Shown here: piece after piece, positions 52,986 to 55,189 of the stretch
Layout of the letters: every line of letters starts with the position of its first letter
Position numbering within the stretch: position 1 is the first letter of the stretch
Assembly (NCBI RefSeq): GCF_050920415.1
Contig: NZ_CP169310.1
Strand: one strand, 5' to 3'
Length of the DNA stretch: 64,000 bases
Source of the DNA: Escherichia coli
GTDB taxonomy: Bacteria; Pseudomonadota; Gammaproteobacteria; Enterobacterales; Enterobacteriaceae
The notes under the pieces: model-generated
Databases searched by the model: none
The model's input: only the letters and a program-made list of their open reading frames with translations
Told to the model about the DNA's origin: nothing
Made by a program: the position numbers and the translations under genes

Positions 52986-53810
52986 ATGCTAAAAAGAATG
53001 ACAATAAATGCAATACTATGGCATATTGAGTCAAACATTGAAAACACACCTTTGGACATAAATGATTTAGTAAAATACTCGGGTTATAGCCGAAGATATT
53101 TACAGTTAATTTTCAAGAGATACACGGGAGTTCCTATTGGTTCATATATTCAATTGCGGAGAATTACCAGAGCTGCAACTCTTTTAAGAGCTACGCAGCT
53201 ATCTATTCTGGCCATATCAGAGCAGTTATTTTATGATTCACAACAAACATTTACAAGAGAGTTTAAAAAAAACACAGGCTACACACCCCTACAGTACAGA
53301 AAAACTGACCACTGGACATTCTGTCAATCCCACAAGGGTAAAAAATATAATATATTGCTTCACTTACCTCAAATTTGTTGTGTTAATTCTGAGGTGTTTT
53401 ATGGTACAGAAATACGGTATATAGAAGAAAGCCCCTTTTTTAACCCAGCGTCAGATTATAAGTGGAATATAGTTGATACACTATTATCAAACAATAAAAA
53501 CGTTTATATATCACACAAAGTATCATCAGAAAAATGTGGAAAATTAGTGGTTAATGCCGTTGTATGGAGGCATGATAACTATTTCACCCCCCCCCGCGAA
53601 ATCAAGAAAGGGCTTTTTGCTTACTTTACATTCAGGGGGGGTAGGGATGATTACTGGAAGTATATGCATAATATTCATACATGGTCTTTACCTATTTATG
53701 GTCTTCAGAGAGGGGGGGGATATGACATAGAAAAAATAACAAAGTATGGTGAAAATGACTTTCTGTTTGAATTTCATATTCCGATAAGAAACCCCAGCGC
53801 TATCAGTTAA
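52986..53810 (+). CDS. AraC/XylS-family regulator with Rob-like architecture (N-terminal dual HTH plus C-terminal GyrI-like domain)
   Basis: 274 aa; ...YSGYSRRYLQLIFKRYTGVPIGSYIQLRRITRAATLL...FYDSQQTFTREFKKNTGYTPLQYRK, with a C-terminus ...FEFHIPIR as in Rob (...ELLIPIRR). It contains C9, G7 and G8 tracts. Confidence 0.8.
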   Translation: MLKRMTINAILWHIESNIENTPLDINDLVKYSGYSRRYLQLIFKRYTGVPIGSYIQLRRITRAATLLRATQLSILAISEQLFYDSQQTFTREFKKNTGYTPLQYRKTDHWTFCQSHKGKKYNILLHLPQICCVNSEVFYGTEIRYIEESPFFNPASDYKWNIVDTLLSNNKNVYISHKVSSEKCGKLVVNAVVWRHDNYFTPPREIKKGLFAYFTFRGGRDDYWKYMHNIHTWSLPIYGLQRGGGYDIEKITKYGENDFLFEFHIPIRNPSAIS

Positions 53811-54340
53811 TACAGCCAACCTTTACAGTATAAAAAGCCCCCGTAAAAACAACTGTAATATTTATATGTTTAGTGGTAATAAACGCAAGGGGCTTGCAGA
53901 TGATGATTGGAGAAAATTATCCACTGAATGCATCAGGCGCAGCTAAAGTAACAACTTCTTTTTTTGCTGGTTATTAATCCCCCTGGAGAGGAACGACTTA
54001 GGTGCAAATAATTTTATGATACTGCATATTCCTGATATATTCTCACACATATAAAGAATAAAGTATCACCACATGAATCACTTTCCCACATCAACCCGGA
54101 ATGAAAGAACTCATCACCTAATCCTATAATGTACAAGCCCCCACGCAAAAAACAAAAAATTCACAGGATCTTCAACATAATAAAAACATGATAACATAAA
54201 ACACAAAGCTAATAAAAAACAAAGACAGCAACCATAATAAAAAAGACGAAACAACACAAATTTACAAAATCAGCCTTATAACACTTCAACTTCCTACGGT
54301 ACAATCAGAAAAGAGGAGAATAAATTAATCAGCAATTATC

Positions 54341-55189
54341 ATGTTACAAAAAACAACCATTAATGCCATACTGAGATATATTGATGAACACATAGAAAAA
54401 AAAAACATAAACATTCATATACTTGTTCAATACTCAGGTTATAGCCGTAGATACTTACAGTTACTCTTCTGTAAAGAGCTGGGCATTCCAATAGGAAAAT
54501 ATATCCAACGCAGGAGGATAACTAGGGCAGCGCTTCTGTTACGACTCACAAGGATACCAATTACATTAATATCAGAAAGACTTTGTTATGACTCACAACA
54601 AACATTCACACGAGAATTCAGAAAACATACAGGATACACACCTCTCCAGTATAGAAAAAGTGAAGAATGGACATTTAAAAACCAGACTGGCCACAGAGAC
54701 TTAAAAATATCATTACCCGTTCCACAAATTACAGCCTTACCCCAAATATTCTTTTCTGGAATATCTATTAACTATACAGGAAGAATACCACACAAATACG
54801 ACAACGCAAAAAAAAAATGGGATACAATAAACTCAATTCTTTCAAAAAAAACAAAGATATATGTAACAAATACAATATCTCACGGGAAAAAACCAAGTAA
54901 TGAATTCAATATAAAAACCATTATCCATACTTCAGAAGAATATCCTTGCACAAAAAACACCACATATCCAAACATTTATGCTCACTTCACATACAAAGGT
55001 AAAATGAAAGATTATGTTTGCTATGTAAATAATTTATATTTAAATGTTTTGCCTTTTTATGGTTTACAAAGAAGGAGTGGATATGATTTAGAAATCATAT
55101 CCACTCAACCTAACGGAGAATATTACTTTGAATACTACTTACCTATATACAAAGATTCTGAAGTGGCTCCTGAGATACCAGACAGTTGA
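54341..55189 (+). CDS. Second Rob-like AraC/XylS-family regulator (paralogue of 52986-53810)
   Basis: 282 aa; MLQKTTINAILRYIDEHIEKKNINIHILVQYSGYSRRYLQLLFCKELGIPIGKYIQRRRITRAALLL...CYDSQQTFTREFRKHTGYTPLQYRK. It contains A10, A10 and A8 tracts. Confidence 0.8.
   Translation: MLQKTTINAILRYIDEHIEKKNINIHILVQYSGYSRRYLQLLFCKELGIPIGKYIQRRRITRAALLLRLTRIPITLISERLCYDSQQTFTREFRKHTGYTPLQYRKSEEWTFKNQTGHRDLKISLPVPQITALPQIFFSGISINYTGRIPHKYDNAKKKWDTINSILSKKTKIYVTNTISHGKKPSNEFNIKTIIHTSEEYPCTKNTTYPNIYAHFTYKGKMKDYVCYVNNLYLNVLPFYGLQRRSGYDLEIISTQPNGEYYFEYYLPIYKDSEVAPEIPDS

Follow-up and report, generated by a model that had tools for sequence, protein, structure and literature searches.

Two predicted Caf1R-family regulators with long homopolymeric tracts beside a K88-like fimbrial operon on an Escherichia coli plasmid

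The DNA analysed here (the window) is a stretch of 64,000 nucleotides from Escherichia coli contig NZ_CP169310.1 (assembly GCF_050920415.1). Two tandem regulator genes, here called R1 and R2, lie next to a K88/F4-like fimbrial operon in this stretch and contain a series of long homopolymeric tracts (Table 1). Both reading frames are open, as the first-pass annotation of the locus had stated, and the two proteins are 42% identical to each other. The six tracts listed in that annotation were all found where it had placed them, and a seventh, the A8 run of R1, is added here. Plasmid NZ_CP012499.1 (pCFSAN004181P, strain GB089) is 100% identical to the window; a window coordinate equals the NZ_CP012499.1 coordinate plus 174. 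The window's close relatives, large plasmids of the IncFIA/FIB type, come from Escherichia cryptic clade I strains that are hybrids of Shiga toxin-producing and enterotoxigenic E. coli (STEC/ETEC). The K88-like colonisation factor of these plasmids has already been described (PMC10100065); regulators of the R1/R2 type are mentioned neither in that paper nor in its searched supplements.

Table 1. Positions of the regulator genes, their homopolymeric tracts and the adjoining fimbrial features in the window.
Feature	Position	Strand	Description
R1	52986-53810	+	Open reading frame (ORF), 274 amino acids; predicted Caf1R-family (Rob-layout) AraC/XylS regulator, divergent from fimbrial operon
R2	54341-55189	+	Open ORF, 282 amino acids; predicted Caf1R-family regulator, paralogue of R1
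A8 tract	53265-53272	+	R1, DNA-binding domain; K94 K95 N96
C9 tract	53587-53595	+	R1, ACC CCC CCC CGC = T200 P P R203; effector-domain loop in model
G7 tract	53635-53641	+	R1, AGG GGG GGT = R216 G G
G8 tract	53712-53719	+	R1, AGA GGG GGG GGA = R242 G G G
A10 tract (first)	54396-54405	+	R2 codons 19-22, GAA AAA AAA AAC; shift removes nearly the whole protein
A10 tract (second)	54808-54817	+	R2, effector domain; GCA AAA AAA AAA TGG = A K K K W
A8 tract	54844-54851	+	R2, effector domain; TCA AAA AAA ACA = S K K T
First fimbrial gene	52262-52822 (RefSeq start 52798)	-	FaeC-like, PF27684; K88/F4-like operon
Usher gene	49803-52247	-	FaeD-like; same K88/F4-like operon, faeE-J-like genes follow
Divergent intergenic region	52823-52985		163 bp between first fimbrial gene and R1; presumed promoter/operator
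R1-R2 spacer	53811-54340		530 bp, A-rich

R1 and R2 both have the conserved Pfam domain HTH_18 (R1 residues 29-106, E-value: 2.3e-19; R2 residues 30-106, E-value: 1.9e-18), and both also match HTH_AraC. The C-terminus of R2 matches Cass2 (29.7 bits, cut-off 27) and the GyrI-like domain (26.8 bits, cut-off 26), whereas the GyrI-like score of R1 (21.6 bits) is under the cut-off of 26. R2 residues 6-251 align with the solved structures of Rob (7vwy and 1d5y), so that both domains are spanned. The AlphaFold (AF2) model of R1 (predicted local distance difference test score 83.6) has seven helices across residues 2-106. Its best full-length structural match in Foldseek is again Rob (1d5y and 7vwy; template modelling score 0.65-0.68), and it also matches the GyrI-like domains of BrlR, BmrR, SAV2435, Cass2 and SbmC. 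Because of these domain matches, the alignment of R2 with Rob and the fold match of the R1 model, the Rob layout (N-terminal double helix-turn-helix [HTH], C-terminal GyrI-like domain) is confirmed in both proteins. The first-pass annotation had proposed this architecture, in distinction from Rns and CfaD, and its suggested profile check held for HTH_18 in both proteins and for the GyrI-like domain in R2, but not in R1. R1 and R2 were rejected as orthologues of Rob, with scores against NCBIfam RobA_TF of 121.2 bits (R1) and 122 bits (R2) and a cut-off of 380. Ratios of nonsynonymous to synonymous substitution among alleles are 0.10-0.20 for R1 and 0.09-0.30 for R2; both genes are under purifying selection.

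By sequence comparison, the closest characterised relative of the two proteins is Yersinia pestis Caf1R (R1: 41% identity across 269 residues, E-value: 1e-59; R2: 40% identity across 273 residues, E-value: 3e-56), and R1 and R2 can be classified by this similarity as two paralogous members of the Caf1R family. Like the two proteins here, Caf1R is predicted to have a GyrI-like domain at its C-terminus; it is essential as an activator, and its binding sites are repeats of a MarA/Rob/SoxS-like consensus that overlap the -35 element (PMC8470410, PMC9820224). The Rob layout is thus present as had been proposed but is nothing new among chaperone-usher regulators, as Caf1R (40-41% identical) has the same architecture. 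The family and its architecture are known; what is new is a Caf1R-type pair coupled with a K88-like operon.

The Caf1R family is widespread on enterobacterial plasmids and mostly unnamed, with members near K88-like, F18, CS14/Rns and other adhesin loci. Relatives were found by tblastn in 396 plasmid records (300 Escherichia, 61 Yersinia and 20 Salmonella), the Yersinia records among those listed being annotated as caf1R. A protein search gave 173 clusters at E-values of 1e-10 or lower, nearly all of them unnamed. Another fae-like operon has a single homologue transcribed divergently from it, and two homologues lie near the F18 genes on an F18 + AIDA pig plasmid. ETEC plasmids CP024244 and CP024255 (positions 6300-9900) encode a 287-residue homologue, about 54-56% identical to R2, beside CS14-type pilus genes. 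About 1.3-1.5 kb upstream of it is an ANR gene, which is divergent from a Rns/CsvR-like gene, and cross-talk between Caf1R-type and Rns-type AraC regulators is possible in these plasmids. In NZ_CP012498.1 (positions 1-4330), an R1/R2 pair of about 96% identity adjoins a different chaperone-usher operon, with a 792-bp chaperone gene and a 2529-bp usher gene. Literature searches returned no named homologue in ETEC, K88 or F18 systems and no paper linking Caf1R to ETEC or K88-type fimbriae.

The GC content changes sharply between the regulators (31-38%; 53000-55500) and the fae genes (54-63%; 48500-52500), and this step suggests that the regulatory module is of mosaic origin. R1 and R2 can be regarded as a separate, mobile, AT-rich regulatory module. 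R2 is probably transcribed from its own promoter, because the upstream region is long (530 bp) and A-rich and includes a sigma-70-like sequence (54101-54130, 10/12), the best such match in the scanned region. The divergent intergenic region contains a sole marbox-like (GCACNNWNNRYYAAAY) site, with 1 mismatch (52870-52885, minus strand). No enrichment of the marbox was found in the window (7 matches vs 9 expected), and a search of 52780-54400 for Caf1R-like operator repeats gave only short two-copy families, with no clear repeat family in the intergenic region. The marbox-like site is thus no more than a hint, and the repeats gave no basis for an operator model. One of these two-copy families is the 11-mer TTCACCCCCCC, common to the start of the fimbrial gene and the C9 site of R1. 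Control of the fae promoter by R1 and R2 is proposed from the analogy with Caf1R, and the marbox-like match stands at chance level, which speaks against that part of our interpretation.

A different view of the same arrangement is that R1 and R2 act on their own genes, or on distant ones of the plasmid or chromosome, and owe their position beside fae to mosaic plasmid assembly. The GC jump, the presence of the pair beside another operon and the existence of orphan homologues (near the Rns/ANR genes of the ETEC plasmids and on p1303_109, where no fimbrial operon is adjacent) are in keeping with this view. However, the divergent arrangement and short intergenic region mirror caf1R-caf1M and recur with another fae-like operon, and in CP012498, too, the operon beside the pair is of the chaperone-usher kind. 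We consider it highly improbable that the adjacent fae operon is not a target.

The 64-kb window has 17 runs of at least 8 bases, six of them within these 2.2 kb, and six G/C runs of at least 7, three of them within R1. The P values given for the tracts are post hoc, as the region was chosen for its tracts. Nearly all Lys codons of R2 are AAA (23 of 24), and its tracts encode KK(N), KKK and KK. When the protein and codon usage are kept, at least three runs of at least 8 bases occur in 33% of synonymous permutations and at least two runs of at least 10 bases in 19%; low values (P about 0.002-0.009) are obtained only in shuffles that ignore the protein. Runs of A7-A10 are also present in six of eight other family genes. 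Because of these values (P 0.19-0.33) and the similar runs in relatives, the A tracts of R2 are ordinary, given by Lys runs and AAA codon usage. Phase variation through the R2 tracts, which the first-pass annotation had inferred along with that through R1, is not supported: composition explains these tracts.

The KKN encoded by the A8 run of R1 is conserved across the family. The residues of its G/C tracts (TPPR, RGGR and RGGG) lie in loops of the model, at positions that are variable across the family. Homologues that are 73-91% identical have TTPR or TSTH, GS, and GTG or GYG at these positions and lack all of the tracts, and G/C runs of at least 6 occur in none of the eight other family genes. 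Three G/C runs of at least 7 were not reproduced in 20,000 codon-order or base shuffles of R1, and composition does not explain them, with the reservation that the test is post hoc. Pairing of C9 with G7 or G8 in the R1 mRNA was rejected, as the predicted fold of 53570-53730 is no better than that of shuffled sequences (z = -0.65).

A one-base gain or loss at any of the tracts truncates the protein, as had been inferred, with predicted products of 219-247 residues for the R1 G/C tracts and 22-186 residues for the R2 tracts. In the R1 G/C-tract products, the DNA-binding domain is complete and roughly two thirds of the effector domain remain. Only shifts in the A8 tract of R1 (107 or 145 residues) and in the first A10 tract of R2 (22 or 34 residues) remove or damage the DNA-binding domain. 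Because the DNA-binding domain is left intact by the R1 G/C-tract shifts, an OFF state is not assured.

Tract lengths were compared across 14 related plasmids, and the predicted frameshift products of up to three alleles per gene were sought by exact sequence among about 15 billion proteins. The first-pass annotation had named invariant tract lengths as the result that would speak against phase variation, and the lengths are nearly invariant: R1 is in frame on 317, 128 and 114 contigs for the three alleles (559 in all) and R2 on 286, 90 and 114 (490 in all). Frameshifted forms amount to about 18 contigs for R1 (about 3%) and about 5 for R2 (about 1%), and nearly all are at C9, A10 and G10. In R1, the C9-1 forms are on 1 and 3 contigs, with a further one in CP012498, and the C9+1 forms on 6 and 1 contigs, with two more in other alleles. 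The G10-1 form is on one contig, with a second case in P0131, and the A8-1 form is on two Logan contigs of another allele. No +1 or -1 form of G7 was found in the three alleles tested, and G7 is invariant in 14 of 14 related plasmids; for G8, no shifted form of the window allele was found. In R2, shifts of the second A10 tract are on two Logan contigs (-1) and one contig (+1, A11), and an exact-match search for +1 and -1 products of the A8 tract in two alleles (window and L006) gave none. Both regulators are intact in all 24 contigs read around the fimbrial gene, and ten near-clonal OkiPb plasmids and the short-read drafts do not differ from the window.

Among the 14 plasmids, C9 is C8 in CP012500 and CP012498, the second A10 tract is A9 in CP012500 and A12 in AP025752, and the A8 tract of R2 has another length only in CP012500 (A7) and AP025752 (A10). 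The first A10 tract is three bases shorter, in frame, in the 95% lineage (A7 or A9 by different comparisons) and is interrupted in CP012498. G8 is synonymously interrupted (GGAGGAGG) in the 95% lineage.

Several of these assemblies have other indels. Over 49.9 kb, CP012500 is set apart from the window by seven indels, C5->C4 and G5->G4 among them, without a single substitution; in comparison with AP025742, AP025752 has lost further bases in A6 and A7 runs. Because these indels are in other, shorter runs of the same assemblies, both assemblies carry homopolymer errors, and the split genes annotated in them were rejected as natural OFF alleles. Of the six C10 contigs, four are long assemblies in which GATC sites have deletions, an error pattern of Dam sites, and other indels are scattered; the C10 allele (P0006) was rejected as natural on this evidence. 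The other two are Logan contigs and are cleaner, one of them also having A9 at both A10 tracts (three tract changes). In JBHFKM, JBHFKE, JBHFKH and CP169398 (L031-L034, L043-L046), deletions or substitutions are found in the GATC at window 52790-52793, together with scattered indels; the GATC changes look like long-read basecalling errors at Dam-methylated sites. The C8 Logan contigs belong to the 95% lineage and are cleaner than the C10 contigs. Two or three tract changes at once are present in three of five clean-looking Logan contigs, and SRR3205838 has C8 plus A9 in R2. Such multiple changes per sample point to technical causes or to mutator backgrounds. Homopolymer differences between public long-read assemblies cannot be taken as biology.

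It is nonetheless very unlikely that all length differences are technical (long-read homopolymer error, library PCR slippage or assembler choice) and the tracts neutral. The confinement of variants to the longest runs (C9, A10 and G10), the error signatures in the same assemblies, the multiple changes per sample and the exact match of the OkiPb plasmids and short-read drafts to the window would all agree with that explanation. It does not account for SRR24839774, whose only difference from AP025748 across 12,428 bp is C9->C8, eight other homopolymers being unchanged, or for SRR19512638, which has the same C8 and three extra single-nucleotide polymorphisms, and it leaves the non-random codon choice in R1 unexplained. 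These two C8 contigs also weigh against our interpretation that the tracts form no programmed switch, as do the following features of R1. Three G/C runs of at least 7 bases in a gene of 35% GC have P about 5e-4 (0.05%) under synonymous-codon permutation, and all four GGG codons of the gene lie within its two G runs. C9 and G7 are retained in three alleles that are about 5% apart, G8 has become G10 in one allele through a synonymous AGA->AGG change, and at least four allelic backgrounds have C9 variants.

These features would fit R1 as a true contingency gene, in which the effector domain is reversibly cut short by slippage at C9, possibly also at G7 and G8/G10, so that a subpopulation would have its fimbriae switched ON or OFF, or regulated or unregulated. 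The G/C tracts are improbable by chance, derived in this lineage and kept across alleles; C8 and C10 are both found on several allelic backgrounds, one C8 contig being otherwise identical to its reference across 12.4 kb; and reversible slippage at an A7 run of E. coli kpsC provides a precedent (PMC13410964). Against this stand the in-frame state of about 97% of contigs, the origin of most variants in assemblies with other indel errors, and co-occurring tract changes in single samples, which point to platform error, library error or mutators. In addition, G7 has the same length throughout, a synonymous change breaks up G8 in one allele, the tracts are absent from homologues that are 73-91% identical, and the shifts spare the DNA-binding domain. 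A contingency gene is therefore judged unlikely. It is quite unlikely that selection has made C9, perhaps along with the G tracts, a slippage switch in an Escherichia virulence plasmid which reversibly removes the last 55-74 residues of the GyrI-like effector domain of R1. Such a switch, if real, would toggle expression or ligand control of the K88-like colonisation factor. E. coli would then have a natural fimbrial phase switch based on homopolymers that acts through the sensor domain of a regulator and not through a promoter or structural gene, and phase variation of this kind would matter for vaccine and colonisation studies. It is plausible that C9, alone among the tracts, has a real low-frequency length polymorphism, and because slippage at the kpsC A7 run has been shown in E. 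coli (PMC13410964), a rare hot spot there is credible. Of the phase variation proposed for R1, the excess of G/C tracts and a plausible hot spot at C9 thus stand; the shifted forms are about 3% and come mostly from error-prone assemblies, and public genomes give no firm sign of programmed phase variation via the tracts.

The interpretation that we favour, with a probability of roughly 0.62, is that a Caf1R-family pair stands beside the K88-like operon and that its tracts are not a programmed switch. The proposed model is as follows. R1 and R2 form an AT-rich module upstream of and divergent from the K88-like operon on a plasmid of the cryptic clade I hybrid STEC/ETEC type. By analogy with Caf1R, at least R1 would activate the fimbrial promoter from marbox-like sites in the 163-bp divergent region, to which it would bind, and R2 may act upstream of R1 or jointly with it; the target operon, the binding sites and this division of labour are inferred. 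The R2 tracts would be by-products of Lys runs in a very A-rich gene. The R1 tracts would encode Pro and Gly in variable surface loops; frameshifts would arise in them from time to time, with C9 as the main site, and would be seen as sporadic loss-of-function alleles or as sequencing errors. The predicted Caf1R-type identity of R1 and R2 gives a concrete, testable model for how a K88-like adhesin is switched on.

Other features of the region were observed in the course of this work. The first fimbrial gene has a homopolymer of its own, a C7 run on the plus strand at 52798-52804 that is G7 on its coding strand. With the RefSeq GTG start at 52798, this run is between a GGAGG Shine-Dalgarno sequence and the start codon; with an ATG start at 52822, it forms codons 6-9. 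The run is C8 in two other assemblies (L031/L043 and L035/L047). Within the fimbrial operon, the window is without a C at 43122 (GTGTT-TATT) that is found in CP012500 and in five of six other compared contigs. The K88-type fimbrial subunit gene at this position is annotated as 744 bp in the window's record and as 879 bp (290-residue product) elsewhere, and the missing C probably reflects either a mistake in the assembly or a frameshift private to the window's record. The 3' part of R2 contains a palindrome at 55075-55106 with a 14-bp stem (GAGTGGATATGATTT CT AAATCATATCCACTC), which was placed on the minus strand in a terminator scan.

Farther away, homology of the window to the annotated CP012500 region identified a glycan/capsule-like cluster, fdnGHI and the heat-stable toxin gene sta1 (about 27000-37000 and 17000-24500). 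The cluster includes three glycosyltransferases, an ABC transporter, an alginate-export-family protein and a nucleotide-sugar dehydrogenase. A C8 run lies at 21465-21472 in a small hypothetical ORF just upstream of fdnG, and CP012500 has a G5->G4 change nearby at 21144. The suggestion that the regulators might also phase-vary glycan expression found no evidence of any kind: the cluster is about 16-25 kb away, and the whole fae operon and an S6 peptidase gene lie between.

Slipped-strand changes of expression are known from other systems. The fim promoters of Bordetella undergo slipped-strand phase variation at homopolymers. In the Haemophilus hif system, slipped-strand events change the promoter spacing (PMC9820224), and in kpsC of extraintestinal pathogenic E. 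coli (ExPEC), rare reversible slippage at an A7 run has been demonstrated experimentally (PMC13410964). R1 and R2 resemble these systems in having long mononucleotide runs where a one-base change alters the expression of a surface structure or of its regulator. They differ in that length polymorphism is rare and mostly confounded by sequencing error, and in that the runs come late in the reading frame and spare the DNA-binding domain.

Rns, CfaD and AggR of ETEC and enteroaggregative E. coli (EAEC) are, like R1 and R2, AraC/XylS-family regulators linked to plasmid-borne fimbriae, which they activate, and their genes are AT-rich. Their domain order is reversed, however, with a C-terminal HTH pair and an N-terminal ligand domain, and the Rns structures 9ca5 and 6xiu match the R1 model in the DNA-binding domain only (about 100 residues). 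The N-terminal position of the HTH pair in both R1 and R2 rules them out as activators of this type. Rob (RobA), the chromosomal activator of the mar/sox/rob regulon of E. coli, shares its fold and domain order with R1 and R2, which are only about 24-25% identical to it, plasmid-borne and fimbria-linked.

Caf1R is the nearer parallel. The two-domain layout is common to Caf1R and the R1/R2 pair, all of the genes are AT-rich, and caf1R is divergent from caf1M-caf1A-caf1, the chaperone-usher operon of the F1 capsule, as R1 is from the fae operon. Y. pestis has one such regulator, whereas here there are two tandem paralogues, and the partner of Caf1R is the F1 (FGL-type) fibre, whereas that of R1 and R2 is a K88/F4-type fimbria. 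The caf1R gene is without any run of at least 7 A/T or at least 6 G/C.

The classical regulators of K88 (F4) fimbriae are FaeA and FaeB, which are PapI/PapB-like. The same kind of structural operon is present here, with faeC-J-like genes, but no faeA or faeB is annotated upstream, and the Caf1R-like pair sits in their position. It follows that the Caf1R-like pair has replaced FaeA/FaeB as the regulatory module of this K88-like operon, and that a Caf1R-type module can stand in for the classical one in an operon of the K88 type.

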